From an uncultured Pseudobdellovibrionaceae bacterium (lineage in GTDB: Bacteria > Bdellovibrionota > Bdellovibrionia > Bdellovibrionales > JAGQZY01): 64,000 nucleotides of DNA. Position 1 is the stretch's first letter; each line of letters starts with the position of its first letter. The translations under genes were made by a program, and so were the position numbers. A model generated the notes under the pieces. The model had not been told where the DNA came from and ran no database searches. It saw nothing but the letters and a program-made list of their open reading frames with translations. The stretch is taken from positions 4,995 through 68,994 of the forward strand of contig CAZOGU010000003.1 of the NCBI GenBank assembly GCA_964579625.1, read 5' to 3'. Below, in pieces: positions 4,352 through 55,825 of this stretch.

Positions 4352-5905
4352 GTGAATTCAATTGTTATCTTTTTGGGGTGTTTAGGAATCACTTTTTCTT
4401 TAGCGCAGACTCAGCCAACCCCATTTTCTGGTTATGATCTTAAACCAGATGTTGGAGATGATAAAACTTTCGAAAATTTTGTGCAGGTTTTAAAGACCAG
4501 TTCTGCAACCTCCATCGATGACTTTCTGGTGGATTGGAAAAGCACAGACCCTCTCATTTTTCGCTATTATTTACTCGCTTACCGTAGCCGAAGCTTACAA
4601 GGTGCGACACCTGAGTTTCCCCGCGCCATTGTCTTTTATCCAACAGGAGAATTCGCGGCCTCTTTTAATGGTCATCCTAAACAAAAAGGCTATCAGCAGA
4701 TTGAACTTTATCGTTTTAATTACCAAAAAAATAATTTCGAATTTTATGAACTGAGTTTTAGAGAAAATGAAAAACCAACATTGTCAGAACCCAATCCACA
4801 AAAGTGTTTGGACTGCCATCAGTCTTTGGGTAGAGAAACACCTGATCCTCGTCCCAATTGGGAGCCGTACTTTTTCTGGCCTGGATTTTATGGAAGCGTG
4901 AGTGGAGTTTTTAAAACCAAGCTAAGCAAGCTCACAGACAACGAAGCCGACAAAATTCATGTGGATAAAGATGCCCTCCTACTGAAGGAAATTCCTTATG
5001 AGCAGAAATGGTACTCACAATTTATGGGGATCATTCGCCCTAATCATCCACGCTATAAAGTCTTAGAACCCTATAATAAAGACCAGGCCCTAGTGGACGC
5101 CAAGATCTATGGAAGCCATTCGGCTGCCGATTTAAAAACGCTCATGTATACTCAGCGCGCCGCGCAACTTAATTTTCGCCGAGTGGCTCGCCTGATGCAG
5201 GAAGATGAAGAGGTATTTGAATATCTCAAGGAAGCTATTGTTGCGCTATTGAATTGCTCATCCAACAAGCTTCCGACAGACTTTGCAAAGTGGCTTTTTG
5301 AAAACTCATCTTTTAAAGGGCAAGGCCGAACACGTCCTCATGTTTTAAACATGGGTGATCAAATTCGTCTCCTATTTGAACCCTTTTATTTTAACACTGA
5401 TGATTGGTCGATGGACTTTAAAACAGATGGGCGTTTTGCTTTTTCCAACCGTTTTGGAACTCCAGGAAGACCCCACATCGAACTCCTATTGGCGATCAAC
5501 TCTTTATCACCGACCATGGCAAAAGCTTCAAGTTTAAGTTGTCGAGACCCTGAATTTGTAAGGTCCTTGGAAAAATACTACGATTTACGAACTGCGATTC
5601 GATTGCAAGAGAAGCGAAGTGGTAACAAAGAGAAATTTGAGAAATTAAAAAATGCACCATTGATCAATCGTTGTATCAGTTGTCACGCATCACCTTCGAG
5701 CCGTGATGTGCCCCACATTCCCTTCGATAATCCATCAGAACTCAAGAAGCTCTTGTTTGAAGTCAAATACAAACAGGGAACTTTGCTGGATGAGATTATT
5801 TATCGGACTGGGGCTCATGCGAATTCCGATGAGCAAATGCCTCCGCGTGGAATTCCAACGCAAAAGCAACGTGATGATATGATTTCCTATCTCAAGTCGC
5901 TTTAA
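4352..5905 (+). CDS. Secreted protein with two CxxCH haem-c binding motifs (di-haem cytochrome-c-like)
   Basis: 517-aa ORF with a GTG start preceded by GGGAGGG. Signal peptide present. Motifs CLDCH (near residue 150) and CISCH, followed by a distal MPP. Confidence 0.7.
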   Translation: MNSIVIFLGCLGITFSLAQTQPTPFSGYDLKPDVGDDKTFENFVQVLKTSSATSIDDFLVDWKSTDPLIFRYYLLAYRSRSLQGATPEFPRAIVFYPTGEFAASFNGHPKQKGYQQIELYRFNYQKNNFEFYELSFRENEKPTLSEPNPQKCLDCHQSLGRETPDPRPNWEPYFFWPGFYGSVSGVFKTKLSKLTDNEADKIHVDKDALLLKEIPYEQKWYSQFMGIIRPNHPRYKVLEPYNKDQALVDAKIYGSHSAADLKTLMYTQRAAQLNFRRVARLMQEDEEVFEYLKEAIVALLNCSSNKLPTDFAKWLFENSSFKGQGRTRPHVLNMGDQIRLLFEPFYFNTDDWSMDFKTDGRFAFSNRFGTPGRPHIELLLAINSLSPTMAKASSLSCRDPEFVRSLEKYYDLRTAIRLQEKRSGNKEKFEKLKNAPLINRCISCHASPSSRDVPHIPFDNPSELKKLLFEVKYKQGTLLDEIIYRTGAHANSDEQMPPRGIPTQKQRDDMISYLKSL

Positions 5906-8453: not shown

Positions 8454-8566
8454 GGTGAGGTCAGAGTAGGCTTTGGGTTTAGAATAGTAAAGAAGAAGGC
8501 GGCCTTTTGCCGTGCATTGACTCTTTCAACAAGGGTCAGTGTCGTCCTTATCGAGCCAAGGAGATG

Positions 8567-8604
8567 TATGCGGTGCCTCATTTTAAGGCACCGCATAGGT
8601 TTTT
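8567..8604 (+). terminator. Orphan rho-independent terminator-like hairpin
   Basis: 11-bp perfect stem TATGCGGTGCC / GGCACCGCATA with a 9-nt loop, followed by GGTTTTT. No annotated plus-strand gene lies upstream. Confidence 0.5.
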
Positions 8605-9198
8605 GACACTCATTTAAAATCAGAGCAAAATCTGTGAATTGCGATGTCTGATAGATAGGTTATTTCCTTTAGAGATAGCACGGATATTCCGATACCCCTA
8701 GCAAAAGGGGGATTATTGCAGAGTTGAGAATTCAAATAACACCTTTTTAGGGAACGTGGATGCAACACAATTTATTAGAGCGGCTCAAGAGTTTGCTCTC
8801 AAAAATAATTCGTGTGTTGTGACCAATGTAAAGAATGTGCAGAGGACTCGCGGACTTATCAGCACCCAAGGAGACATTTTGGAGACTCGCCTTACCGAAA
8901 AAGAAACAAGTCGAATGAAAAAAGATACGGCTTCGATCGTTGCCGCATTTTAACCTGCGACCTTCAGAAAGCCACTGTTGTGACAACTCCAGCCTATGAC
9001 ATGAATGGGATCTCCATTTTTCAGTAATTGAATCAAGTTCATATGGAGTGAAAGCAAACACGTTCACTCCATTGATGACAAAATAAGTCGCTACTCAGAC
9101 ATTAAAAGGCCACAAAACAGCATTAAACTATTGATAAGACGTCCATTTTTGTGGTGTTCATCTTGCAATGAGTCCTGTGGATAACAAAAGGATGTAAA

Positions 9199-9606
9199 AT
9201 GAATAACCTCTTAAATCTTTTTTTAGCAATTATTGTGATCCCCAATGCAGCGTTTGCTGGCGTCTTAGGTGGACAGGAAAATATCGAGATCGTCAGAACA
9301 GTGCGAGTCGATAAAATGATGATCGGAGTAACCAGTGATTTTAAAATGATTGCCTTCGATTGTAAAAACGACAGCTATTTTGAGAAAGCATCCGTAGCGA
9401 TCCTTGAAAACGATGAGAGTACAATTACTTTTAAAGAATCATCTCATGGCGGGGTTCAAATAGGCTTTCTTCGGTCGAACTTATCACCGTCAATTAAACT
9501 CACAAAACGAGCGACAAGTGCGATTTGCGGTTTAGAAAGCAAAGAGCAAAACATCGTTTTAAAGCTGAACAAATCCGAATTTGATTTAGCAAACACCGCG
9601 CTTTAA
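9199..9606 (+). CDS. Small secreted hypothetical protein
   Basis: 135-aa ORF with AAAGGA RBS and signal peptide MNNLLNLFLAIIVIPNAAFA. Confidence 0.55.
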   Translation: MNNLLNLFLAIIVIPNAAFAGVLGGQENIEIVRTVRVDKMMIGVTSDFKMIAFDCKNDSYFEKASVAILENDESTITFKESSHGGVQIGFLRSNLSPSIKLTKRATSAICGLESKEQNIVLKLNKSEFDLANTAL

Positions 9607-9619
9607 AACTCAAATTTCG

Positions 9620-11653
9620 TTAGGACATTAAACCCGATCGACGCAAAAGCGCCATCGGGTCGGGGTCGCGGCCACGAAAATCACGAAACAATTGCTCAGG
9701 CTCTGCAGTCCCGCCACGGCTTAGGATGCAATCGCGAAATTTCTTTGCGACCTCTTGATTGTAAATTCCCTTTTCTAAAAAAGCCTCAAAAGCATCGGCG
9801 TCGAGCACTTCGGCCCATTTGTAGCTATAATATCCCGCGGAATACCCACCCGCAAAAATATGCGAAAACGTGACCGAAAAATTGGTGTTAGGAATTCGTG
9901 GTAATACGGACAGTGGCGAGAGAATTTTTTCTTCCAACTCCATGGTTTTTAATTTTGTTCCAGGCACAACATCGTGCCAAGCCAAATCGACCAAGCAAAA
10001 ACTCAGTTGACGAAGGCTCGCGTAGCCGGCGTTAAAATTCTTACTTTTTTTAAGCTGTTTAAAGAGAGTTTCCGGAAGAGGAGCACCGGTTTGATAGTGT
10101 TTTGCAAACAGATCCAAAGTTTCTTTCTCGAGAGCCCAATTTTCCATGATTTGCGAAGGAAGTTCGACAAAATCCCAAAGCACATTGGTGCCAGCCAAAG
10201 ACGGGTAAGAGCAATCGGACAGCAGGCTGTGGAGGGCGTGACCGAACTCATGAAAGAGAGTTTGCACTTCATTAAAAGTCAAAAGCGATGGATTGTCTTT
10301 TGTGGGTTTTGAAAAGTTACAAACAATGCTCACATGCGGGCGATAGCGAGTTATGCCATCAGAGCCCTGCTCCAAAAAAGAGGTCATCCAAGCGCCACCG
10401 CGTTTGTTTTCGCGAGGAAAGACATCAAAATAAAGGAGACCAACAAATCCATTAGAGTCATGCACTTCGTATGTTTTAACATCTTCGTGGTAAGTAGGGA
10501 TGGACGAATTCACTTTAAATTCTAAGCCAAAAAGTTTTTGCGCGTGTAAAAAGAGCCCGGCAAGCGCCTTTTCCATTTGAAAATAAGGCCGCAAATCTTC
10601 TTCGCTAAACTGAAATAATTTTTCTTTGAGTTTTTCAGAATAATAAGCAAAATCCCAAGGCATGATTTCGGTTTCGCCCTCGAGCTCTTTGCGAAGTTGG
10701 CGAATGGCTTCGATTTCTTTTTCTGTGGCTGTGATCGAAGGTTTAAGAAGTTTTTCTAAAAACGTTTTCACCGTCGCGGTGGTTTTAGCCATTCGGCGCG
10801 ATAATACAAAATCAGCATGAGTTTTAAAACCCAGGAGCTGAGCGCGTGCGGCGCGCAGTTCGGCAAGGTGCTCGCAGAGTTCTGAGTTGCTAAATTCCCC
10901 GGTGAGAGAACGTTGGTTGGAGGCGAGCCACATCTGTCGACGGAGGTCGCGATTTTGTGCATAGGTCATAAAAGGAATATAACTTGGCGCTTGCAGCGAA
11001 AAAAACCAAGCCTCCGGTTCGTCCTTTTCTGTGGCGGCTTCTTTCGCGGCCAGCTTGGCCGAATCAGGCAAACCTGCAAGATCTGATTCCTTTGTGACTT
11101 TTAAAAGAAAGGCGTTTGTGGCCTTAAGAAGATTTTGGCCAAAGCGAGGAGTGAGCTGGGCCAATTCTTTATCGAGCTCACGCAATTTTTCTTTTAGTGC
11201 TTCATTGAGGAGGGCACCATTTCGGACGAAGTCTTCGTAGTATTTTTTAAGGAGCATTTTCTGCTCTTTGTTTAAGTTGAGAGAGTCCGCCTGATCATGC
11301 ACAGCTTTGATTTTAGCAAACAAACCAGCATCCAATTGGATGTCATTGCCATATTCAGCGAGTAAACCAGAAATGGCATCCGACTGCGCATCAATGTCGG
11401 GGTGGGTGCACGCATGCTGAAGATTAAAATACACGCCAGAGGCTCTTTCCAGAGGAAGGCTCGCAAACTCGAGCGCCTCGATTGTATTTTTAAAATCCGG
11501 CAGAGCTCGTTGGGTTTTTATTTTCTCGATGGCCGTTTTCGCTTGTTCGATGCCCGTGCGAATCACTTCGGTAAAGTGTTTGGGCTCGAGTTGGTTAAAG
11601 GGAATTGCACCGTAGGGAAGACCATTTTGGAGAGAAAAGAGTTGTAAATTCAT
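9620..11653 (-). CDS. dcp: M3-family zinc metallopeptidase, peptidyl-dipeptidase Dcp / oligopeptidase A type
   Basis: 677 aa with the HEFGHALH zinc motif and GGAWMTSFLEQGS. Overall layout resembles E. coli Dcp. Confidence 0.85.
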   Translation of the reverse strand: MNLQLFSLQNGLPYGAIPFNQLEPKHFTEVIRTGIEQAKTAIEKIKTQRALPDFKNTIEALEFASLPLERASGVYFNLQHACTHPDIDAQSDAISGLLAEYGNDIQLDAGLFAKIKAVHDQADSLNLNKEQKMLLKKYYEDFVRNGALLNEALKEKLRELDKELAQLTPRFGQNLLKATNAFLLKVTKESDLAGLPDSAKLAAKEAATEKDEPEAWFFSLQAPSYIPFMTYAQNRDLRRQMWLASNQRSLTGEFSNSELCEHLAELRAARAQLLGFKTHADFVLSRRMAKTTATVKTFLEKLLKPSITATEKEIEAIRQLRKELEGETEIMPWDFAYYSEKLKEKLFQFSEEDLRPYFQMEKALAGLFLHAQKLFGLEFKVNSSIPTYHEDVKTYEVHDSNGFVGLLYFDVFPRENKRGGAWMTSFLEQGSDGITRYRPHVSIVCNFSKPTKDNPSLLTFNEVQTLFHEFGHALHSLLSDCSYPSLAGTNVLWDFVELPSQIMENWALEKETLDLFAKHYQTGAPLPETLFKQLKKSKNFNAGYASLRQLSFCLVDLAWHDVVPGTKLKTMELEEKILSPLSVLPRIPNTNFSVTFSHIFAGGYSAGYYSYKWAEVLDADAFEAFLEKGIYNQEVAKKFRDCILSRGGTAEPEQLFRDFRGRDPDPMALLRRSGLMS

Positions 11654-11692
11654 TCGTTGAGACTAACAGGCTTCTCGAAAACTTTAAAGACT

Positions 11693-11856
11693 TAGGGCGT
11701 GTGGACAATTAAAAATCTGTCTATATGGACTTAAATTGATCTGACTCTTCGTTGCTCGTCGTCTTGTTAGCGCTTTGCTAGCAATTCCTCCTCGCGCCTC
11801 GATTCAAATCAATTTAAGTCCATTATAGACAGATTTTTAATTGTCCACACGCCCTA
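11693..11856. repeat. Foldback element copy 1: 48/49-bp arms around a ~67-nt core (MITE/ERIC-like)
   Basis: Left arm is TAGGGCGTGTGGACAATTAAAAATCTGTCTATATGGACTTAAATTGAT. The right arm is its reverse complement with one extra base. The core CTGACTCTTCGTTGCTCGTCGTCTTGTTAGCGCTTTGCTAGCAATTCCTCCTCGCGCCTCGATTCAA is shared with 15245-15405. Confidence 0.9.
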
Positions 11857-11866
11857 GGCCGCTGCG

Positions 11867-13762
11867 CTATCGAGGGGAGAGAATGACCTCGCGAGTCTCG
11901 TTCACGCGGACCGTGACGCGCGTCTCTTTGCTCGCACCAGAGATGGGATTCACTGATTTTAAAATGATTTCTTTGTCAGCGTCGACAACCAGCTTTTCGC
12001 CGTTTTTCAACTTCTGGGAGCCCATATAAGCTTCGCCGCCCACAATTCGAACAATGATCGCACCAGAGGGAATACTGGTCAGTTTGTAAGACACAAAATT
12101 ACCTGGCGGCAATCCATTATAACGACGTGTTTCACTGCGATAGCCGTTCATCGAGATAGACACAGTAAACGGCTTGTCGGTATTGACCTCAACCTCTGCT
12201 GGGGTCATTTGATTGGTGGGTTGAGAGTTCACATAAATATGAGCCCCAATTGGATCACTGGTGATTTTGAGTTTTGGAATTTTAGAAGCAAGCAAGGACT
12301 GCCCAGCAACGTTTTGATCTTGAAAGCAGCTCAATGGAACACCAAAAGATTTGAGCTGCAGGCAGGGCTTTGCAACAAGGTGAGGGCGAAACTCGTTGAT
12401 CGCGCCAAAACCACCAATCAAAATCGCAATCGCCAAAAAGAAAGCCCCAAACACCGAAGAAGCATTTGAGCTTGGAATATTTTGAATGCGAATATTGGGT
12501 TGCGATGGTCTGCTTGGAATGGATCTTTGTGAGACTGAACCTAAGCCTGAGTAGTTGGGAGCCTGACTGACGCTTAAATGCGACTGACTGATCTCGCCCA
12601 GCTGAGACATATTTGTCGTCAGTGTCGGTTGTCCGATTTTTTTAATTTCGAGATCTTCGAAGTTCATTTTTTCCGTGGTGTTTTTTGAGTAAGTGATCGA
12701 CTGCGTGACCACATCAGTGCGTGTATTTTTTTCGATGTACTGTTGAGAGTGGGACTGCTGTGGTGGCTCGACCACATGAGGAATATCAATTTTAGAATAG
12801 GCCACCTGGCGTTTACGTGCGTCGATGATTTCTTCGGAATAAGTTTCTTTAATAAACTCACTAAAATCCTGGCTCGAAAAATCCGGATTGTAACGATTTA
12901 GAAAACTCTGAAGATCTTTTTGCAGCTCGGCCGCGGTTTGGTAGCGCTGAGCTTTGTTGCGAGTGAGGGCTTTGTTAACAATTTTTTCGATTTCGATCGG
13001 GATATTGGGATCGATCTGGCGAAGACTTGGGATTTTGCAATCGCGAATCTTGCGTAAGGTGGTCATCTCGTTATTGCTCAAGAACAAGCGTTGCTCGCTG
13101 AGCATTTCCCAAATCATGATTCCCATGGCAAAAATATCTGTACGTCCATCCACCTCAAGTCCGTCGACTTGCTCGGGGCTCATGTAACCAAATTTTCCCT
13201 TGAGGGTTCCAACGCGGGTGTTTTCCTGCTGAGTTGTGGATTTGGCGATCCCAAAATCGATAATTTTAACTTCGCCTTCAAAACTCACCATCACGTTTTG
13301 CGGACTCATATCACGGTGGATAATGTTGAGTGGTTCTCCGGTGGTTGCATCGATAAGGCGGTGGGCGTGATCGAGGCCCGCGGCGATCATTTTTGAGGCG
13401 TAGACAATATGGCTGATCGAGAAGCGTTTGTGCAATTGTTTCAGACGATTGAGAATTTGTCGCAGGTTTTTTCCTTCGACATATTCCATAACGATGTAAA
13501 GCTGCTTGTTTTCGATCCCGAAGTCATGAATTCCCACCACGTTACTGTGCGAGAGATTGACGGCGATTTTGGCTTCGTCTTTAAACATGCGAATAAAATC
13601 TTCGGAGGCTGAATGCTGGGATAAAATTCTTTTAACGGCGACAAATTTTTGCAAACCTTCGGCGGCTAATTTTTTCGAAAGATAAATCTCGGCCATGCCA
13701 CCAGCCGCTAGCTTTTCGAGAAGGATGTAATTACCAAATCTTTCAAATTTCTCTTGTGCCAA
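11867..13762 (-). CDS. Hanks-type Ser/Thr protein kinase with a TM segment and a C-terminal PEGA-like domain
   Basis: 631 aa. Kinase motifs are GGMAEIY...VAVKRIL, HRDMSPQNVMV, DFGIAK and GYMSPEQ. TM segment is VFGAFFLAIAILIGGFGAI. The C-terminal ITSDPIGAHIYVNSQP... is PEGA-like. Confidence 0.9.
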   Translation of the reverse strand: MAQEKFERFGNYILLEKLAAGGMAEIYLSKKLAAEGLQKFVAVKRILSQHSASEDFIRMFKDEAKIAVNLSHSNVVGIHDFGIENKQLYIVMEYVEGKNLRQILNRLKQLHKRFSISHIVYASKMIAAGLDHAHRLIDATTGEPLNIIHRDMSPQNVMVSFEGEVKIIDFGIAKSTTQQENTRVGTLKGKFGYMSPEQVDGLEVDGRTDIFAMGIMIWEMLSEQRLFLSNNEMTTLRKIRDCKIPSLRQIDPNIPIEIEKIVNKALTRNKAQRYQTAAELQKDLQSFLNRYNPDFSSQDFSEFIKETYSEEIIDARKRQVAYSKIDIPHVVEPPQQSHSQQYIEKNTRTDVVTQSITYSKNTTEKMNFEDLEIKKIGQPTLTTNMSQLGEISQSHLSVSQAPNYSGLGSVSQRSIPSRPSQPNIRIQNIPSSNASSVFGAFFLAIAILIGGFGAINEFRPHLVAKPCLQLKSFGVPLSCFQDQNVAGQSLLASKIPKLKITSDPIGAHIYVNSQPTNQMTPAEVEVNTDKPFTVSISMNGYRSETRRYNGLPPGNFVSYKLTSIPSGAIIVRIVGGEAYMGSQKLKNGEKLVVDADKEIILKSVNPISGASKETRVTVRVNETREVILSPR

Positions 13763-13851
13763 AGGGAGTCCTCTTTTACTCTTTCTTTATCGGTTACGAA
13801 CCGGAAAAGAATGAGAAGTTTTAAACACTTCCACCAACAACTGGACCTTGG

Positions 13852-14460
13852 ATGAAGATGAAATGGATTGGGCTCACAGGCGGAATCGCGACCGGCAAAT
13901 CCACGGTTGCAAATTTATTCCAAAAAAAGGGAATTCCCGTTATTGATGCTGACGTCATTGCCCACAGGGCTTTGGTCGCGTCGAGTCCAGTTTTTGCGGA
14001 GTTGATCGCGACGTTTGGGCAAAATATTGTCGGGAGCGATGGAAATATCGATCGCAAACTCTTGGGTCAAAAGATTTTTCAGGACTCAAAAGCTCGTCTT
14101 CGTCTCGACAGTATCGTTCATCCTTTTGTACGAAACCAGGTGGCGATCGAAAAACAGAAGTTGATTCAAAATGGTACACCCATGGCGATTTATGATATTC
14201 CTCTCCTCTTCGAAAAAAAGATGCAAGGTGATTTCGATCTCGTCGTTGTTGTCAGTTGTGATTTAAAAATCCAAAAAGACCGATTGATGAAAAGAAATTC
14301 TCTCTCATCCCAAGAAGCCAACCAAAGAATGGCAGCACAACTTCCGCTCAGTGAAAAAACAAAACGCGCTGATCACGTGATCGATAACAGCGGCACGCTC
14401 GTCGACTTAGAAAAGCAAGTGGATACTTTTCTCAAAAGTGTTACGTACTCATTTCCTTAA
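13852..14460 (+). CDS. coaE: Dephospho-CoA kinase
   Basis: 202 aa with IGLTGGIATGKSTV P-loop, typical CoaE length and layout. Confidence 0.9.
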   Translation: MKMKWIGLTGGIATGKSTVANLFQKKGIPVIDADVIAHRALVASSPVFAELIATFGQNIVGSDGNIDRKLLGQKIFQDSKARLRLDSIVHPFVRNQVAIEKQKLIQNGTPMAIYDIPLLFEKKMQGDFDLVVVVSCDLKIQKDRLMKRNSLSSQEANQRMAAQLPLSEKTKRADHVIDNSGTLVDLEKQVDTFLKSVTYSFP

Positions 14461-14465
14461 GTGTT

Positions 14466-14587
14466 CAGCAGCAGCTACGGCATCAGAAGCGGTTTCAGTT
14501 CAGTTTGTGAGTTTAAGGGCTTAAATAATGAACTCATCACAGCTGAAAACTGAACTGAAACTGTTGCAGATACTGTGACTGCTGCTG
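14466..14587. repeat. Long imperfect hairpin between convergent genes
   Basis: CAGCAGCAG...TTTCAGTTCAGTT...TGTGAGTT pairs with AACTCATCACA...AACTGAACTGAAA...CTGCTGCTG. There are perfect blocks of 9 and 13 bp, but the 18-nt block between them pairs at only 10/18, and there is a bulge. Confidence 0.6.
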
Positions 14588-14602
14588 CCAACCTCTTCTC
14601 AC

Positions 14603-15223
14603 CTAGAATTGCAAAGTGTAACCGAGCAGTGCCTTGCCATACGCGCTTTCCAAGCCTTGATGGAAGCTGAGTTCAAAGCGCATGTTTTGTCTCTTGAGCA
14701 GTTGGAACTCCCAGCCGCCGGCTAAAAATAAATGATACGAATCCAAATCGACAAGCGGTCGCAGTTCGCGATCGGCATCAAGAATCAAACTGACTCCTCC
14801 ACCCCAGTAAAGGCGATAAAGATTTCGAGTCGGTAAACTGTGCGCAGCCAATTGAATCCAGCCAATATCTTCGTGAAGATCAACACCAATTTGAAATCGC
14901 GTCGTCGCAGTCATCCATGGGGCGGCATGAATTCCAACCCAACCGCTGTGATCTTCTTCGCTCACTTCGTAACCTCGACTGAGGGCGAGGGTTACGCTGG
15001 GGCGAGGTTCAAGGTGATAGGTTGGTGCTTTGGGTTGAGGGTGAATGCGTTGTTCTGGATCTAAGCCCGATTGCTCCATATCGACTTTTTTTGTCTCTGG
15101 GGGAGGTGTTTCTTGCTGAGGTGAGGGGGCCACATAAGTATGATCTGTCGGGGGTTTTGCATTCGCCACTGACAAACACAACCAAATGCCTAGGTTGCAA
15201 AGAAGAAAGATTTGTTTCGTCAT
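14603..15223 (-). CDS. Small secreted protein, probably an outer-membrane beta-barrel
   Basis: Start moved to MTKQIFLLCNLGIWLCLSVANA. The upstream 12 codons lie inside the foldback repeat. Signal peptide present. C-terminus ...LLGYTLQF has the terminal-Phe OMP signature. Confidence 0.6.
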   Translation of the reverse strand: MTKQIFLLCNLGIWLCLSVANAKPPTDHTYVAPSPQQETPPPETKKVDMEQSGLDPEQRIHPQPKAPTYHLEPRPSVTLALSRGYEVSEEDHSGWVGIHAAPWMTATTRFQIGVDLHEDIGWIQLAAHSLPTRNLYRLYWGGGVSLILDADRELRPLVDLDSYHLFLAGGWEFQLLKRQNMRFELSFHQGLESAYGKALLGYTLQF

Positions 15224-15244
15224 AAAATTATTATACTCTTTAAG

Positions 15245-15405
15245 AGGGCGTGTGGACAATTAAAAGTGTGTCTATATGTTTTAAAATTGATCTGACTCTT
15301 CGTTGCTCGTCGTCTTGTTAGCGCGTTGCTAGCAATTCCTCCTCGCGCCTCGATTCAGATCAATTTTAAAACATATAGACACACTTTTAATTATCCACAC
15401 GCCCT
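15245..15405. repeat. Foldback element copy 2: 51-bp arms with 1 mismatch, same core as copy 1
   Basis: Left arm is AGGGCGTGTGGACAATTAAAAGTGTGTCTATATGTTTTAAAATTGATCTGA, and the right arm is its reverse complement with one C/T difference. The core differs from copy 1 at only 2 positions. Same orientation as copy 1. Confidence 0.9.
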
Positions 15406-15447
15406 AGAACCGACTCAACGATAATCAGTTTGTTTCACAAGGATGTG

Positions 15448-16602
15448 ATGATGTTGCGCTTTGTTTTTATTATTTTTGCGGTTTCCTACTTTTTCGTTCG
15501 AACGTCGTTTGCTCAACAAGCGCTTTATTTTGGAATTCACCAGCAGTTTCAGTCGACACGTGCGCTGGGGATGGGAAATGCGCATGTGGCCGTGGCCGAT
15601 GACGAAAACGCGATTTTTTATAATCCGGCAGGAACACTTCGCTCCAAAGATCGTAAGATGAACTTTTTTTTAAAAGCAGGGGGCGATCCCGATATCAAAG
15701 ACTTTATGGATGAAATCAAAACGGCACAAGACGCCGCCGACTCTTCGCAGGCAATCGGTGATTTGATTGCATCGAAGTATGGACAGCACTATGCGCTTCG
15801 AGCGCCTTCATTGGGATTTATTTGGGCCACTCCAAAATGGTCACTCGCTTTAATTCCGGCTGACGTCACTGTCGAAATGGGTTTGCATCAAACAGTGGGG
15901 CCATCGATCAACCTAGTGGCTTTTCAAGATACAACTTTGGCTTACTCGCGCGCTTGGAATATGAAAAAAATGCGCTATGGACGACTGGATATGGGCGCAA
16001 CAGCCAAGGTGATTTATCGCGGCCACCTCGATAAAATTGTTAGCATCGTCGATATTCAAAACGACAATGTTATTAAAAAAGAAGATAGCAACGAAGGCAT
16101 GACGGCGGATTTGGACTTTGGAATGCTATGGCAGGCCCCCGAATACACTTCGGGATTTTTTAGTTATCTGCAACCGAGTCTTGGAATGAATGTGCGCAAC
16201 ATCGTCGACGCTGGATATTTTTCGAACCTTAAACTGTTTGCGGATGATAAAACAGGAGAGCCAGAAAAACTTCATCGTATGCTTGATGTTGGGACAGCGT
16301 TTAAGCTTCCAAACTGGTGGTTGTGGTCGTCAAAACTCGCGATTGATGTTCGCGATATTTTTCACCCCAATTGGACCTGGGAAAAGGGTTTGCACGCCGG
16401 TCTGGAGTTCAACTGGGAGATGTTTTCTTGGTGGAAAGGCGGCTGGCGCGTGGGGATGAATCAAATGTATTTTACCGCCGGCTTCACTGGGCAACTGTCC
16501 GTTTTTAAGCTCGATTTGGCCACTTTCGGCCGCGAAATCGGCACCTCATCAGCCAAAACAGAAGACCGCGTCTACATGCTCACAGCGAGTATCGACTTTT
16601 AG
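15448..16602 (+). CDS. PorV/FadL-like outer-membrane beta-barrel protein (paralogue 1 of 3)
   Basis: Start taken at ATG 15448, after AAGGA. Signal peptide present. N-terminal RALGMGNAHVAVADDENAIFYNPAG motif. C-terminal EDRVYMLTASIDF. Confidence 0.7.
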   Translation: MMLRFVFIIFAVSYFFVRTSFAQQALYFGIHQQFQSTRALGMGNAHVAVADDENAIFYNPAGTLRSKDRKMNFFLKAGGDPDIKDFMDEIKTAQDAADSSQAIGDLIASKYGQHYALRAPSLGFIWATPKWSLALIPADVTVEMGLHQTVGPSINLVAFQDTTLAYSRAWNMKKMRYGRLDMGATAKVIYRGHLDKIVSIVDIQNDNVIKKEDSNEGMTADLDFGMLWQAPEYTSGFFSYLQPSLGMNVRNIVDAGYFSNLKLFADDKTGEPEKLHRMLDVGTAFKLPNWWLWSSKLAIDVRDIFHPNWTWEKGLHAGLEFNWEMFSWWKGGWRVGMNQMYFTAGFTGQLSVFKLDLATFGREIGTSSAKTEDRVYMLTASIDF

Positions 16603-16770
16603 GGAATTCCTACACTGTGAGTTGGTCTCTTTAACGAATCCAAGCAAAGGAAGCTAAATCCTTCCTCTAAACTGGAAAATTTCTACAATTAAGTACATTT
16701 TGTTCCACAGAACTCCATTCATTGGATATGAACACGTCTTTCCGGGGTTGATTCTTCCTGAGGGGTGTTT

Positions 16771-18153
16771 ATGAAAATGGGTGCTTTTTTAATAGTCTTT
16801 TTTTCTTTGTTTCTTATGAAACCGATTGTCCACGCGGATGAAGTTCGTTACATCGCATATGATGAGCAATTTATTGCCGCAGTTGTTTCGTCGATTGAAT
16901 CCGCAAAAAAATCCATCGATATTGCGTACTTTATTTATGAACCCTGCCATCCTTCCACCAAGTTTGTGCGCCAACTTCTTGTTAAAAAAGCAAGTCAGGG
17001 AGTTCGAGTCCGTTTTTTGTTGGATGCCTTTATGTACAAGAAAAAAATGCGTCAAGCGATGGCACGGGACTTCGCAGATTCTGGTATTGAGTTTAAATTT
17101 TATAATCCCAAACCCCTCGTCAATCCGGCCGTGAATTTTCGAATGCATGTCAAATTGCTTTTGGTCGATAAAAAATCGTACATCTCTGGGGGAAGAAATA
17201 TTGCCGACGAATATTTTGGACTTTCTCCCGTTTACAATTTTATAGATGCGGATGTGTGGGTGACAGGGCGTTCTGCAACGCAAGTCTCAGCGTCTTTTGA
17301 AGAGTTGTGGAACGATCGATGGTCGCGATCAGTGAAGCTCAAAAAGGGCCCGTCCCTTGCTGAGCTATGCCAACAGAGCGAAGCCCCTCAAGACGAAAAG
17401 TGGACGAAACGGGTTCACAAATTTATGGGGCAAACAGCCAGCAAAGTGACACCTCGGATGACCAAACATTCGTGTCAGGCGCGTTTTGTCAGTGATGATC
17501 CGCAATTTTATAAATATCCAAGTCAAGCAAACTCAGAAGATAAGAACACGCCCATTCTTGGCGGGAAAAGATTACAAGCGAAGCGAGCCACTGTCGAATT
17601 TTTAGATTTTATTGGTCAAACACAAGAGAGCTTAGAACTCGAAAACTGGTCGTACATGCCACTCGATTTTATCAACCAGGAGCTGCGAAATTTACGACAA
17701 CAAAACATTCCCATTTTAGTGATGACAAACATGGATGCCGACAACAACGGCGTGATTAAAAATGCCGAGGATTTTTTAAATCATCGGTTTGCCAAACGCG
17801 ATACAGAAGACTCACAAATTGTGATTCAGTTGGCCTCACGCGGGCATCTTTCGGATCGTCATGCCCTCACACCTAAAAAAAGCTACTTTCGTTTGCATCA
17901 AAAGACGGGGCTTCGCGATCATCGCGATATCATGGTGGGGTCTTTTAATATCGATCCACGCTCTTATCACACCAATCTTGAGTCCATAGTGATTTTTGAG
18001 GGGTGCCGATCTTTTGCCAAGGAGTACGCGCAGCATGCCTCGGACTTGGTGCGGACTTATAACAAAGATTATGAGACGGGTTATCACAAAACCCCTCCAC
18101 CTCCAAAACTCGGGACCATTTTATTCTCCTTCTTTGGCTTCGACTTTTTGTGA
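16771..18153 (+). CDS. Secreted phospholipase-D superfamily protein (two HKD motifs)
   Basis: Start at ATG 16771, after GAGGGG. Signal peptide present. HKD motifs are HVKLLLVD..GGRNI and HQKTGLRD..GSFNIDPRS. Confidence 0.85.
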   Translation: MKMGAFLIVFFSLFLMKPIVHADEVRYIAYDEQFIAAVVSSIESAKKSIDIAYFIYEPCHPSTKFVRQLLVKKASQGVRVRFLLDAFMYKKKMRQAMARDFADSGIEFKFYNPKPLVNPAVNFRMHVKLLLVDKKSYISGGRNIADEYFGLSPVYNFIDADVWVTGRSATQVSASFEELWNDRWSRSVKLKKGPSLAELCQQSEAPQDEKWTKRVHKFMGQTASKVTPRMTKHSCQARFVSDDPQFYKYPSQANSEDKNTPILGGKRLQAKRATVEFLDFIGQTQESLELENWSYMPLDFINQELRNLRQQNIPILVMTNMDADNNGVIKNAEDFLNHRFAKRDTEDSQIVIQLASRGHLSDRHALTPKKSYFRLHQKTGLRDHRDIMVGSFNIDPRSYHTNLESIVIFEGCRSFAKEYAQHASDLVRTYNKDYETGYHKTPPPPKLGTILFSFFGFDFL

Positions 18154-18170: not shown

Positions 18171-18276
18171 CCGAAAAGGTGCCAAGCCTTTTCCGGCAAT
18201 ATATACGATTTGGGCCCAATTTGGGTTATATCTAAGTCCTTGTTTGTGCCCAAGTCGTATATATTGCCGGAAAAGG
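18171..18276. repeat. Palindromic element: 29-bp stem (one G-T) plus a third upstream GAAAAGG copy
   Basis: CCTTTTCCGGCAATATATACGATTTGGGC (18187-18215) pairs with GCCCAAGTCGTATATATTGCCGGAAAAGG (18248-18276). CCGAAAAGG at 18171 can also pair with 18187-18196. Confidence 0.8.
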
Positions 18277-20975: not shown

Positions 20976-21770
20976 ATGAAAAAGTTGATTCTTCTTTTTT
21001 TATTGTTGGGTTGTAGCAAAAATATTCTTGAAGAGACGGCAAAGCCAAACACACCGGAAGCCGTGTATTATCGCGCGAAGCTGGCGATGAATGATCAGGA
21101 CTACGACGCCGCTATTCTTCTTTTGCAATCGCTGGGGCCGACATATCTTTCGCGTCGTGATGTGGCCCTTGTTTATGCGTCTGCTTATTCGGGTCGCTGC
21201 GGATTAAACTTCGTGAATCTAATCACTCAGCTGGATACAGTTGGGACAGCCGCAAATTTGTTCTTATTTTTGATGGATATTTTTCCCGATGGATCGGACT
21301 CCAAAATTGGTGATTGTCAGTTTGCAGAGACGACGTTGAACACATTTGGAGCCTACACAGCACGCACAGCAGACGAAAATATTTTGATGGGACTCTCGAG
21401 CATTACTAAAGTTGGAACTATTTTAAATCGTTACGCAGATACAGACAATAACGGAGCTGCAGACGCCACTTTTGATCATTGTGATCTCACAGATTTTCCA
21501 GATGATGCCGTTCGCGAGATTGGAACAGGAATCGCTAATGCGATACTGAGTATTTCGCAAGTGAGTTCATCGATCTCGTCTGACACACTCACTGAAATCA
21601 CGTCTCTTTGTGCTCTCAATGTGAATCTCAATTCCTTTTGCACGACGACAGACAAGTCTACCTATACAGCACTTGAAGTGAGTTTTTTAAGATCCTTAGT
21701 GGCCTCCACCAGTGATGGAATCGGTGCCGCAACTTGCCCAGGGAGTTTCATCACTTGCATCTGTCCTTAA
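20976..21770 (+). CDS. Cys-rich lipoprotein (L2), paralogue of 19124-19792
   Basis: AGGAG RBS and lipobox LLFLLLGCSKN. Motifs shared with L1 include YSGRCGLNF and FPDDAVREIG. Confidence 0.75.
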   Translation: MKKLILLFLLLGCSKNILEETAKPNTPEAVYYRAKLAMNDQDYDAAILLLQSLGPTYLSRRDVALVYASAYSGRCGLNFVNLITQLDTVGTAANLFLFLMDIFPDGSDSKIGDCQFAETTLNTFGAYTARTADENILMGLSSITKVGTILNRYADTDNNGAADATFDHCDLTDFPDDAVREIGTGIANAILSISQVSSSISSDTLTEITSLCALNVNLNSFCTTTDKSTYTALEVSFLRSLVASTSDGIGAATCPGSFITCICP

Positions 21771-22903
21771 CCACACTCTTTATTTGTATTTTCTTTTTTG
21801 CATTTCATCGCGCGAGCGCGGAGGAACTGCCAGAGTATGGTCTTTCCGTGAAAGGTCTCGGAATGGGGAATGCTTACACCGGACACGCAAAGGGGCATGA
21901 CGCTCTCTTTTACAACCCCGCTGCATTTGCAAATCTGACGGGATTTCAGATGCGTTTGATGGGGCTTGGCGTGGGACTAAATGGAATTGATGTCTACGAT
22001 GAATACTCTGATCTTTTTGATAATTCCAATAACGTTGGAGACACACTCAATGCGCTGTATGGACAACCGATATGGGCTCGTGTGGATTATCAATTCTCAA
22101 TGAGTTCGGGACCATTTATTGTTGGTGCTTATTCGCGAGCCAATGTGGGCTTTACGCTTCTTAATCCAGCTCTACCGACTCTTGATGCTAATTATTACGC
22201 CGATTATGTTTTTTTTGGCGGAGCGGGTGTATCGATTGTGCCACAAATTTTTGATGTGGGTTTTGTTGTAAAAAGAATCACACGTTTTGCAGGCGGTGGG
22301 GATATTTCCGCGTCAACGCTGGCTTTTTTAGACTCGCAAGCCATCGAAGATGCTGCCAATCAAACAGGCGTTGCTTTTGGCGCTGATTTTGGAGCAAAGC
22401 TCACGTTGCCAGGCGAATGGCATCCCTCTGCGGCCTTTGCATGGCAAGATATTGGAAACACATCCTTTTCTTTCAGTGCAACGAATCCCGCACCAGCGAC
22501 GATTGAAGATCGAATGAACATTGCTCTTGGATTGGAGCGAGAATTTCTTGGACTGTTTACACTTCGTCCAGCCATTGAATACAAAATGATAAATAGCTCA
22601 TCAACAGAGGTGCAAGTCGGAAAAAAACTTCACGCGGGTCTCGAACTCGAACTTCCTGCAATCACTCTGCGTGGAGGTTTTTACCAGGGCTACTACACGT
22701 ACGGTGCGTCCTTTGATTTTTGGGTTTTCCAAATGGATTTTGCAACTTATGCTGTAGAACTGGGCGAATACGTGGGCCAGCACGAAGACCGTCGCTATAT
22801 GTTTCAGCTGACAATGGACTTCGGTATCGACGGAGTCTCTGGCGATTGGTTCAATTTCTCAAAATCCCGTCGCACCAAACGCGGTATCAAACAACGCCGT
22901 TAA
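21734..22903 (+). CDS. PorV/FadL-like outer-membrane beta-barrel protein (paralogue 3); start uncertain
   Basis: KGLGMGNAYTGHAKGHDALFYNPAAF and EDRRYMFQLTMDF, followed by a basic tail. The TTG start at 21734 overlaps the upstream gene. An in-frame TTG about 24 nt downstream is equally plausible. Confidence 0.7.
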   Translation: MPREFHHLHLSLTTLFICIFFFAFHRASAEELPEYGLSVKGLGMGNAYTGHAKGHDALFYNPAAFANLTGFQMRLMGLGVGLNGIDVYDEYSDLFDNSNNVGDTLNALYGQPIWARVDYQFSMSSGPFIVGAYSRANVGFTLLNPALPTLDANYYADYVFFGGAGVSIVPQIFDVGFVVKRITRFAGGGDISASTLAFLDSQAIEDAANQTGVAFGADFGAKLTLPGEWHPSAAFAWQDIGNTSFSFSATNPAPATIEDRMNIALGLEREFLGLFTLRPAIEYKMINSSSTEVQVGKKLHAGLELELPAITLRGGFYQGYYTYGASFDFWVFQMDFATYAVELGEYVGQHEDRRYMFQLTMDFGIDGVSGDWFNFSKSRRTKRGIKQRR

Positions 22904-23030
22904 AAAAGGTACGCCGTTCCTTTTCCTTAAGCTTTGTGTCATTTCTTTTTCTCGTCATCTTTCGCTTTGCTCAAGATGACGAGAAAAAGAAATGACACAA
23001 AGCTTAAGGAAAAGGAACGGCGTACCTTTT
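22904..23030. repeat. Perfect palindrome: 57-bp stem, 13-nt loop
   Basis: 22904-22960 is the exact reverse complement of 22974-23030. The loop is TTCGCTTTGCTCA. It starts at the base after the stop codon of the upstream gene. Confidence 0.95.
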
Positions 23031-30281: not shown

Positions 30282-30411
30282 GTCGAAGAAGGGGCCGTCT
30301 TTAAAACTCTCTTTTTTGGACCTCTCGCCAACAGGATGTTGGATCGTGCGAGCAGAGCCCCGGACGGGCGTGTCCAAAAAAGAGAGTTTTAAAGACGGCC
30401 CCTTCTTCGAC
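30282..30411. repeat. Perfect palindrome: 40-bp stem enclosing a 50-nt structured loop
   Basis: 30282-30321 (GTCGAAGAAGGGGCCGTCTTTAAAACTCTCTTTTTTGGAC) is the exact reverse complement of 30372-30411. The loop contains CCAACA-gga-TGTTGG and GCCC-cggac-GGGC mini-hairpins. Confidence 0.95.
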
Positions 30412-55400: not shown

Positions 55401-55662
55401 ATTCGAAAAAGGCATTGATTGCATCCCAGTTAAAAAAGTTCACGAAGGTCGCCCGCATTGCGTGGATCGCATTCGCTCGGGAAAAGTAGCCATGGTGATC
55501 AATACAACATCGGGCCGTCTCTCGATCGATGCCAGCTTTCAAATCCGTCGCAGTTGCACAGACTACGGAGTTCCGTGCATCACAGAGGATCATGCCGCCG
55601 AAGCGTTGTTGTTGGCTTTACGAAAATTGCACACCGGTCAATTCGGAGTCATTGCAATCTAG
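52489..55662 (+). CDS. carB: Carbamoyl-phosphate synthase large subunit
   Basis: 1057 aa with duplicated ATP-grasp halves ([19 protein letters not shown] and [18 protein letters not shown]) and a C-terminal MGS-like domain. Confidence 0.97.
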
Positions 55663-55825
55663 TATTCCAACCAGTTATTCTTTTCCCCTTGAACTCAGTC
55701 TTTTTTCCAAAATTCAATTTGCTCCTCCTTGAATTGGCTTTGGGCCAGTCCTTCGTCGTCACGCATTGAATTTTGGAAAAAATCCTATCGTTCAAGGGGA
55801 AAAGAATAACTGGTTGGAATACTAG
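55659..55825. repeat. Nested palindrome: 36-bp outer stem, 18-bp inner stem, 46-nt apical region
   Basis: 55659-55694 is the exact reverse complement of 55790-55825. 55701-55718 is the exact reverse complement of 55765-55782. The carB TAG stop (55660-55662) lies inside the left arm. Confidence 0.95.

Follow-up and report, generated by a model that had tools for sequence, protein, structure and literature searches.

The 64,000-nt stretch of DNA analysed here, called the window throughout (positions 4,995 to 68,994 of contig CAZOGU010000003.1, assembly GCA_964579625.1), comes from an uncultured Pseudobdellovibrionaceae bacterium and contains two copies of a short foldback element, the arms of which differ between the copies by changes that are mirrored across the stem. 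The genes flanking the copies encode a peptidase M3 (9620-11653, minus strand, start at 11653), a Ser/Thr protein kinase with a PEGA domain (11867-13762, minus strand, assigned by Pfam scan), CoaE, the product of a 206-aa open reading frame (ORF), a TraF_2-like protein and a PLD-domain protein. Copy 1 occupies the spacer that separates the stop of the kinase gene (11867) from the start of the gene for peptidase M3 (11653), two genes of the minus strand, and probably lies within a kinase-peptidase M3 co-transcript. Copy 2 separates two divergent genes: the 206-aa ORF starts at 15223 on the minus strand, and the TraF_2-like gene at around 15451 on the plus strand. The homologues of the kinase that carried a source name were labelled as Bdellovibrionaceae or Bdellovibrionales metagenome-assembled genomes. 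The 206-aa ORF had no Pfam match, and the label of a small outer membrane protein (OMP) given to it by an earlier reading of the sequence, hereafter the original prediction, could not be upheld.

Architecture of the two copies

The two copies, described in the original prediction as having the same orientation, were recovered by sequence reading, by a repeat finder and by alignment. Copy 1 spans 11693-11856 on the plus strand, including a flanking TA at each end (11693-11694 and 11855-11856). It consists of a 52-nt left arm (11693-11744), a 59-nt core (11745-11803), which is unpaired except for a small apical hairpin TTAGCGCTTTGCTAGCAA, and a 53-nt right arm (11804-11856) with a one-base bulge at 11823. 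Copy 2 spans 15244-15406 on the plus strand, or 15245-15405 without the flanking bases, which are GA on the left and TA on the right. Its left arm (15244-15295), the junction of which is backed by the contigs L001, L046 and L047, is followed by a 59-nt core (15296-15354) and a right arm (15355-15406) with one C-to-T change in the terminal repeat (GGATAA).

The copies are about 90% identical, with 16 mismatches and one gap over the 164 columns of the pairwise alignment. As predicted, they have both the outer and the inner arms in common. In the window, the outer-arm 21-mer AGGGCGTGTGGACAATTAAAA is confined to the two arms of each copy, with four occurrences against a chance expectation of 0; it is exact in three of the four arms and has one mismatch in the fourth. 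The inner arm ATTGATCTGA is common to both copies, and the right arm of copy 1 reads ATTGATTTGA. The outer 21-23 nt form the conserved terminal inverted repeat. The shared core was also confirmed, with revised dimensions: it was thought to measure about 65 nt with two differences, whereas it measures 59 nt with a single one (T/G at 11774), and the A/G difference at 11807 falls in the inner right arm. A 29-nt string of the core has two occurrences in the window. The sequence AGGAGGAATTGCTAGC was present on the minus strand as described. The proposed recurrent motif CGCTTTGCT, however, occurs only twice in the window against 0.97 expected, and 24 of 100 shuffled sequences did as well.

Both copies are predicted to fold very stably. 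The RNA fold of each reaches about -94 kcal/mol (z around -18), the minus-strand RNA folds being about 3 kcal/mol more stable than the plus-strand folds, and the DNA folds reach -55 and -58 kcal/mol (z around -15).

No third copy was found in the genome, metagenome, viral, plasmid or phage collections scanned, and the copy number seen is two within the 64-kb window. Exact patterns for the 29-nt core string and a 20-nt terminal repeat gave no match in genome contigs, patterns for the terminal repeat and the core gave none in viral contigs, BLASTN of the element gave none against plasmids and phages, and nhmmer detected no homologue of the core among the sequences searched. A literature search for the terminal-repeat string returned nothing relevant.

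Inverted repeats are a classic point of failure for assemblers, and a chimeric foldback or a misjoined repeat in a metagenome-assembled genome could in principle mimic such an element. In independent Logan assemblies from three runs (L001, L046, L047 and L048), three of the four flank-arm junctions were reproduced with identical sequence, as were the copy-specific bases at the variable positions 23 and 25. The Logan contigs stop at the arms, ending about 30 nt inside them. Because independent assemblies carry both the junctions and the copy-specific bases, we take the element to be real and not an artefact of one assembly. Relatives also bear related elements, and an assembly artefact is a scarcely credible explanation.

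Mirrored differences between the arms

The left arms of the two copies differ at six alignment columns (23, 25, 36, 37, 38 and 40), and every one of these differences is mirrored in the right arm. The variable block lies at 11715-11732 in copy 1, with its mirror image at 11816-11834, and at 15266-15283 in copy 2, with its mirror image at 15367-15384. Among the 52 pairs of the stem, 43 are invariant, six are altered on both sides, none is altered on one side while paired, and three cells are unpaired; the original prediction that all six differences are compensated and that both copies keep a helix of about 50 bp is therefore borne out. The pairs changed from A-T to G-C, C-G to G-C, G-C to T-A, A-T to T-A, C-G to T-A and T-A to A-T. 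Transversions make up four of the six, and three of the six lie side by side (GAC to TTT). The divergence is confined largely to this mid-arm block, where 6 of 18 positions differ on both arms; elsewhere the copies differ at 1 of 59 positions in the core and at 1 of 42 in the outer arms, and the mismatch between arms within a copy is about 2%.

Since six mirrored changes out of six cannot be due to chance, either selection for pairing or arm-to-arm homogenisation must hold. The original prediction had posed precisely this alternative without choosing, and the evidence discussed below leans to the process at the level of DNA.

Insertion sites and relation to known elements

The relatives used for comparison are contigs with conserved gene order, in which the kinase is 74-91% identical. 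The site of copy 1 is empty in six of them (L002, L003, L004, L005, L008 and L050), where the spacer between the kinase and peptidase M3 genes measures 51-67 nt, compared to 213 nt in the window. Aligned with these relatives, the whole element appears as a clean insertion. The relatives read GATC-AA-A(C/G) where the window reads GGCC-TA-[GGGCG...CGCCC]-TA-AGTC, so that two nucleotides (AA) of the empty site stand in place of TA-element-TA, and the flanks of copy 1 would fit a 2-bp duplication of TA. At the site of copy 2 the terminal repeat is absent from L004, L008 and L050, three relatives without the element there; L051, the closest relative at this site, also has no terminal repeat there, in a contig that ends 62 nt upstream of the gene. 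The flanks of copy 2, GA and TA, are one base off TA/TA. Empty orthologous sites had been proposed as a check on mobility, and they were found for both copies.

With a size of 160-164 nt, only trivial overlapping ORFs and no Pfam or Rfam content, the element is small and non-coding; its 52-nt arms are 96-98% complementary and constitute terminal inverted repeats, and its insertion is polymorphic, filled in the window and empty at the orthologous sites. [quoted passage not shown] It is a previously undescribed MITE family, new within a known class, in relatives of predatory bacteria (Bdellovibrionota). It is dispensable, because relatives do without it at both sites. We rejected a composite transposon carrying the kinase-coaE-ORF segment: the copies do bracket this segment, as the original prediction stated, but the bracketing is incidental, because the relatives keep the same gene order without the elements. 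Target-site duplications had been named as an observation that would speak against a structure maintained by pairing; being a MITE and maintaining pairing are, however, compatible, as in the REPINs and bcr1 elements described below.

Several known systems resemble the element in part. Apparent insertion at TA is shared with MITEs derived from the IS630/Tc1-mariner superfamily, such as RUP of pneumococcus and the plant Stowaway elements, for which ISY100 provides the studied bacterial transposase, although no IS630-family element with the present terminal repeat was found. Stowaway elements are hairpin-like over their whole length. Like the Correia elements of Neisseria (CREE or NEMIS), the element is non-coding, intergenic and bounded by TA-flanked terminal inverted repeats, and Correia elements are of similar size (100-160 bp) and duplicate TA. 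No resemblance in sequence was recognised by eye, without an alignment, and Correia repeats are about 26 bp long compared to the 52-bp stem here; Correia elements also occur in hundreds of copies versus the two seen here, and mirrored stem variation is not a noted feature of theirs. They are co-transcribed with neighbouring genes, their hairpins are cut by RNase III, and they may carry outward promoter elements (PMC10969869, PMC3184786). The bcr1 element of the Bacillus cereus group is about 155 bp long, mobile between strains and transcribed, and base-pair compensatory changes keep its structure (PMC3184786). It differs from the present element in its 5-bp direct repeats, its phylum, its unrelated sequence and its cruciform-like fold in place of a single long stem.

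The pattern of conservation finds its closest match in the REPINs, doublets of repetitive extragenic palindromic (REP) sequences mobilised by REP-associated tyrosine transposases (RAYTs). Their inverted ends do not vary, whereas the middle, which has to pair, is less conserved and shows frequent compensatory changes (PMC3116915), and the six two-sided changes without a one-sided change observed here are of that kind. The element departs from REPINs in having a 59-nt conserved core instead of a short loop, in its TA flanks and in the lack of a RAYT in the window. By definition, a REP is a short palindrome, imperfect, whose conserved tag is GTAG (or CGTC) (PMC3733652), whereas the outer arm AGGGCGTGTGGACAATTAAAA is not self-complementary and the ends read YTAGGG, not GTAG.

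Terminal repeat and candidate transposase

A degenerate scan for the terminal repeat in metagenome contigs gave 37 loci, most of them chance or coding matches (termite-gut and marine groups), and six were informative. The repeat TAGGGCGTGTG(G/A)(A/T)CAATT ends other small TA-flanked elements: a 165-nt element in L015 (480-644, repeat TAGGGYGTGTGATCAATT, TA-flanked), a 121-nt element in L012 (107-227) with one end exact over 23 nt and the other degenerate, and a 59-nt deletion derivative in L018 (4008-4066). Single ends are found in L040 (1-229), L033 (about 9400-9592) and L034 (3654 onward), the latter two adjoining sequence rich in GCGATCGC. At all of these loci TA adjoins GGGCG in the context YTAR. 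This context is TTAG and CTAG at copy 1, and CTAG, CTAA or TTAG at L005, L012, L015, L018, L033, L034 and L040; IS630 elements prefer CTAG.

A MITE family that is flanked by TA and has TAGGGCGTGTGATCAATT as its terminal repeat is found in five of these contigs (L015, L018, L040, L033 and L034), all rich in GCGATCGC. The octamer GCGATCGC is common in cyanobacteria, and the terminal repeat of the Bdellovibrionota element is thereby shared with small elements of cyanobacterial-type metagenome contigs. Compared with plasmids by BLASTN, the cyanobacterial-type relative gave only a chance match. The cyanobacterial MITE Nezha has a 10-bp direct repeat (PMC6042816). Identity with Nezha was rejected, because the flank here and in the cyanobacterial-type relatives is TA and not such a long direct repeat; Nezha is further marked by an ISNpu3-type terminal repeat.

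A further related structure is a 65-nt foldback in L005 (8498-8562), with related arms AGGGCATGCGATGAATTACAAAA and a right arm containing TAGACAGTTTTTTAATT, which matches copy 1. Its arms have 3 mismatches in 26 (88% complementary). The match indicates that the state of copy 1 at positions 23 and 25 is the ancestral one. This foldback lies 16 nt from the position orthologous to copy 2, nested in an outer palindrome (AAAAGGTAYCAAGTA...; 8481-8579), and the copy 2 site may accordingly be a hot spot of insertion.

Judged from these sequences, the outer 18-23 nt appear to behave like a transposase-binding end that is kept across very different hosts, while the interiors are unrelated. In ISY100, which belongs to the IS630 family, the footprint of the transposase is a 24-bp inverted repeat, likely also the minimal requirement in cis, and TA is duplicated upon insertion (PMC2170065). 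A requirement of 24 bp fits the conserved outer 21-23 nt of the element studied here. We propose that a DDE transposase encoded elsewhere would bind the outer 21-23 bp and move the element, and the TA flanks in YTAR context suggest an IS630/Tc1-mariner-like enzyme. Judged from the flanks alone, we hold membership of this partner in the IS630 family only tentatively.

The window encodes no transposase, in agreement with the annotations of its left part in relatives, and a tblastn search of it with a Y1 transposase as the query was negative. An IS982-like transposase (DDE_Tnp_1_3) in L034 was rejected as a partner: it has inverted repeats of its own and lies 170 nt inside the end, and is a separate insertion. 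In L003, a 160-aa Y1 transposase gene (IS200/RAYT-type, PF01797; 234-716) lies beside coaE, where other genomes have the 206-aa gene, and no REP-like flank was seen around it.

Origin of the mirrored changes

The inner 30 bp of each arm prolong the terminal repeat into a stem of about 52 bp around the conserved 59-nt core. In the mechanism that we propose, a multi-base change in one arm would be copied to the other by intramolecular template switching, that is, by quasipalindrome correction or hairpin-templated repair. One or two such multi-base events copied across the stem would suffice, rather than six rounds of compensation at the level of RNA. Six independent compensations are implausible, because the period in question allowed only about 2% change elsewhere. 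Copying at the DNA level is favoured by the four transversions among six changes and by the adjacent triple, because G.U intermediates cannot bridge transversions. Template switching during replication is known to create and repair perfect stems and to yield multi-base compensatory changes (PMC8794818). Being linked to replication, it fits the clustered mirrored substitutions observed here as well as the mirrored indels described next. It is a mutational process rather than a family of elements, and it is undescribed as a regular feature of bacterial MITE stems. On balance, we think it somewhat probable that the mirrored changes have their origin at the level of DNA.

Within the clade, arm-to-arm templating is most strongly supported by a pair of tandem foldbacks in L008 (9005-9152 and 9179-9318), unrelated to the element studied here. 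These foldbacks share a core in opposite orientation, with 2 substitutions and 2 gap columns in 48, and their stems agree in the inner 10 bp. Between the arms of one and the other there are 11 substitutions and 7 gap columns in 52, and each foldback is nevertheless 100% self-complementary (51/51 and 46/46). The differences include mirrored indels of 6 nt and 1 nt, which are the expected product of arm-to-arm templating and hard to obtain by selection.

A simpler history might do without any ongoing maintenance of pairing. The copies could represent two old subfamilies, or the product of recombination with an unseen third copy, and their arms would be near-perfect merely because the copies are young. 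Long foldbacks in these genomes are either perfect (58/58, 51/51, 46/46, 40/40 and 36/36) or clearly decaying (80%, 77% and 88%), as birth followed by decay would predict, and the arm mismatch within a copy (about 2%) equals the divergence of the core between copies. However, at least one arm-copying event is still required to mirror six changes, the near-identical core of both subfamilies is left unexplained, and no third copy was present in any collection searched. We regard this history as improbable.

Selection could instead act on a transcript: the element would serve the host as a small RNA or a cis-regulatory hairpin, and purifying selection would keep its helix. Copy 1 would be placed suitably, inside the probable kinase-peptidase M3 co-transcript; on the strand of that transcript (minus), both uncompensated mismatches read as G.U, and the fold is better by 3 kcal/mol. 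There is precedent in bcr1, which is transcribed and shows compensatory changes (PMC3184786), and in the Correia elements, which are cut by RNase III (PMC10969869). The structured RNA gene envisaged in the original prediction nevertheless found no backing: Rfam gave no match in the window at the gathering score and none on the element in a permissive scan of 11500-15600 with E up to 10; the element contains neither a promoter nor a terminator; and copy 2, although no less well paired, is situated in a divergent intergenic region, upstream of the nearest promoter-like site. Both sites are without the element in relatives, in keeping with a dispensable element, and the four transversions offer no passage through a G.U intermediate. 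A host-selected RNA structure therefore appears improbable too.

The most serious rival is selection at the level of the element itself. In a REPIN-like life cycle, transposition would proceed via a hairpin of single-stranded DNA and only copies that pair would replicate. The ends and the core would then be conserved for recognition while the stem would be free to vary as long as it pairs, which fits a fast-changing stem between a constant core and constant ends. The single-stranded DNA is predicted to fold very stably, and a Y1 (HUH) transposase gene occurs in the same neighbourhood of the relative L003. On the other hand, the arms are not REPs, since they are not palindromic themselves and have no GTAG tag; the window has no Y1 transposase; and TA flanks in YTAR context are a signature of DDE (IS630-type) and not of HUH enzymes. 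Moreover, the mirrored adjacent triple and the mirrored indels of L008 would still require a templated mutational step. We consider this explanation unlikely, although less so than the other two.

Several observations weigh against our own interpretation of a TA-targeting MITE with template-switched arms. The evidence for a target-site duplication comes from one clean site, copy 1, with one empty-site comparison, and the TA may belong to the repeat. No autonomous element with this terminal repeat was found in the window or the collections scanned, and ISY100, the only IS630-family element whose repeat was compared, was rejected as the parent because its repeat TAGTAGTTTCAAATAAAGC is unrelated. 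Homogenisation is not universal, as decaying foldbacks are seen at 14466-14587 of the window (80% complementary), in the inner arms of L051 (77%) and in the L005 relative (88%); the L051 foldback, situated upstream of rpsD, has 5 mismatches in 22. In the covariation test, which has little power with two copies, the observed value was reached by 13 of 500 shuffles. The two arm mismatches left uncompensated are each C.A when read on the plus strand and G.U when read on the minus strand, which is the sense strand at copy 1. Tolerance at the RNA level would lead one to expect this pattern, which has a chance probability of 0.25. Finally, the stems have diverged about 10 times faster than the core, which template switching alone does not explain; for this difference in rate, neither model of the mirrored changes suffices by itself.

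A bolder version of the templating model would address this difference. As a routine part of their replication or transposition, the foldbacks of this clade might rebuild one arm on the template of the other, for instance through fold-back or hairpin-primed synthesis. Such regeneration would explain why two unrelated families, the element studied here and the L008 pair, combine conserved cores with arms that have diverged strongly, mirrored indels included, but are perfectly complementary, why four more near-perfect foldbacks with arms of about 29-58 bp occur in the window, and why stems diverge about 10 times faster than cores. If this were true, new copies would be born perfectly palindromic, ends and core together would make up the heritable unit, and the stems would be self-templated sequence that evolves fast. 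Systematic self-templating of stems across families would be a new aspect of the evolution of bacterial foldback elements. At present we rate this extension as unlikely.

Template switching within DNA remains our preferred explanation of the six mirrored differences themselves, and the stem compensation of the REPIN or bcr1 kind is most simply explained by it. The two copies provide a clean, small case of mirrored multi-base stem changes that could be mistaken for RNA covariation and more likely reflect template switching, and they call for caution in covariation-based RNA discovery within repeat-rich intergenic DNA.

Possible effects on the neighbouring genes

Copy 1 would add a hairpin of about 50 bp to the kinase-peptidase M3 co-transcript. 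By analogy, this hairpin is likely to be a site for RNase III or a determinant of stability, because Correia elements in the same situation are substrates of RNase III (PMC10969869).

At copy 2, the 206-aa gene would receive from the terminal repeat a -35-like hexamer, placed upstream of its conserved -10. The promoter-like site (15230-15259, minus strand) combines TTGTCC of the copy 2 terminal repeat as -35, an 18-nt spacer and the native -10 TATAAT; with 10 of 12 consensus matches it is the best in the region. From the consensus match only, the terminal repeat and the native -10 may form a hybrid promoter. The TATAAT does not vary among relatives and precedes the ATG of the 206-aa ORF by 7 nt, a spacing that may point to a leaderless mRNA for this gene. 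The sequence TAAGAGTATAATA...ATGA (15223-15240) upstream of the 206-aa gene is invariant across four genomes.

Other foldbacks and repeats

The intergenic regions of the window contain further foldbacks. At 55659-55825, between a probable carB and an ABC-transporter gene, a 167-nt foldback has 36 perfect pairs plus 18 more and a 46-nt core. It has CTAG on both sides, its terminal repeat GTATTCCAACCAG is unrelated to that of the element studied here, and from these features it probably represents a second TA-targeting MITE family. Homology between the two cores was not established, with a local alignment z of 3.2 and a negative nhmmer search.

A perfect foldback at 22904-23030 takes up exactly the gap between the ORF 21734-22903 and an AddB-like gene; its 58-nt arms are 100% complementary, and its loop, TCGCTTTGCTC, measures 11 nt. 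At this site the closest relative, L049, has the inner left arm in common and differs in the outer 15 nt, the outer AAAGGTACG is all that L005 and L050 have in common with the window, and L008 has only a 23-nt hairpin equal to the end of the right arm in the window. Another perfect foldback (30282-30411; 40-nt arms, 50-nt core) lies between divergent genes and resembles the L008 foldbacks at 9005-9318 in its inner stem TTTTTTGGAC/GTCCAAAAAA and, loosely, in its core. Between the convergent coaE and 206-aa genes, the window has a degenerate foldback (14466-14587) with 41-nt arms that are 80% complementary, on which the permissive Rfam scan gave weak matches to microRNA precursors. At the corresponding site, L008 has two perfect foldbacks and L005 has a short stem; L004 and L050 have nothing there.

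The PLD-domain gene (16765-18153), which separates the TraF_2-like gene from rpsD, is missing from L005, L008, L050 and L051, and is a lineage-specific gain or loss adjoining the foldback at 18187. This foldback upstream of rpsD (18187-18276 in the window, 7114-7233 in L005 and 1205-1330 in L051) is conserved across genomes in circularly permuted form. The window and L051 have the order P'-X-loop-X'-P, and L005 has X'-P-loop-P'-X, where P is the AAAAGGTACTTGGTACC unit. The candidate unit AAAGGTAC was not significantly enriched in the window (3 matches versus 1 expected). A REP-like palindromic unit, AAGGTAC-N4-GTACCTT, does not occur in its simple form in the window and is intergenic in L005 (7152), L008 (6245) and L051 (1215, 1313 and 2136).

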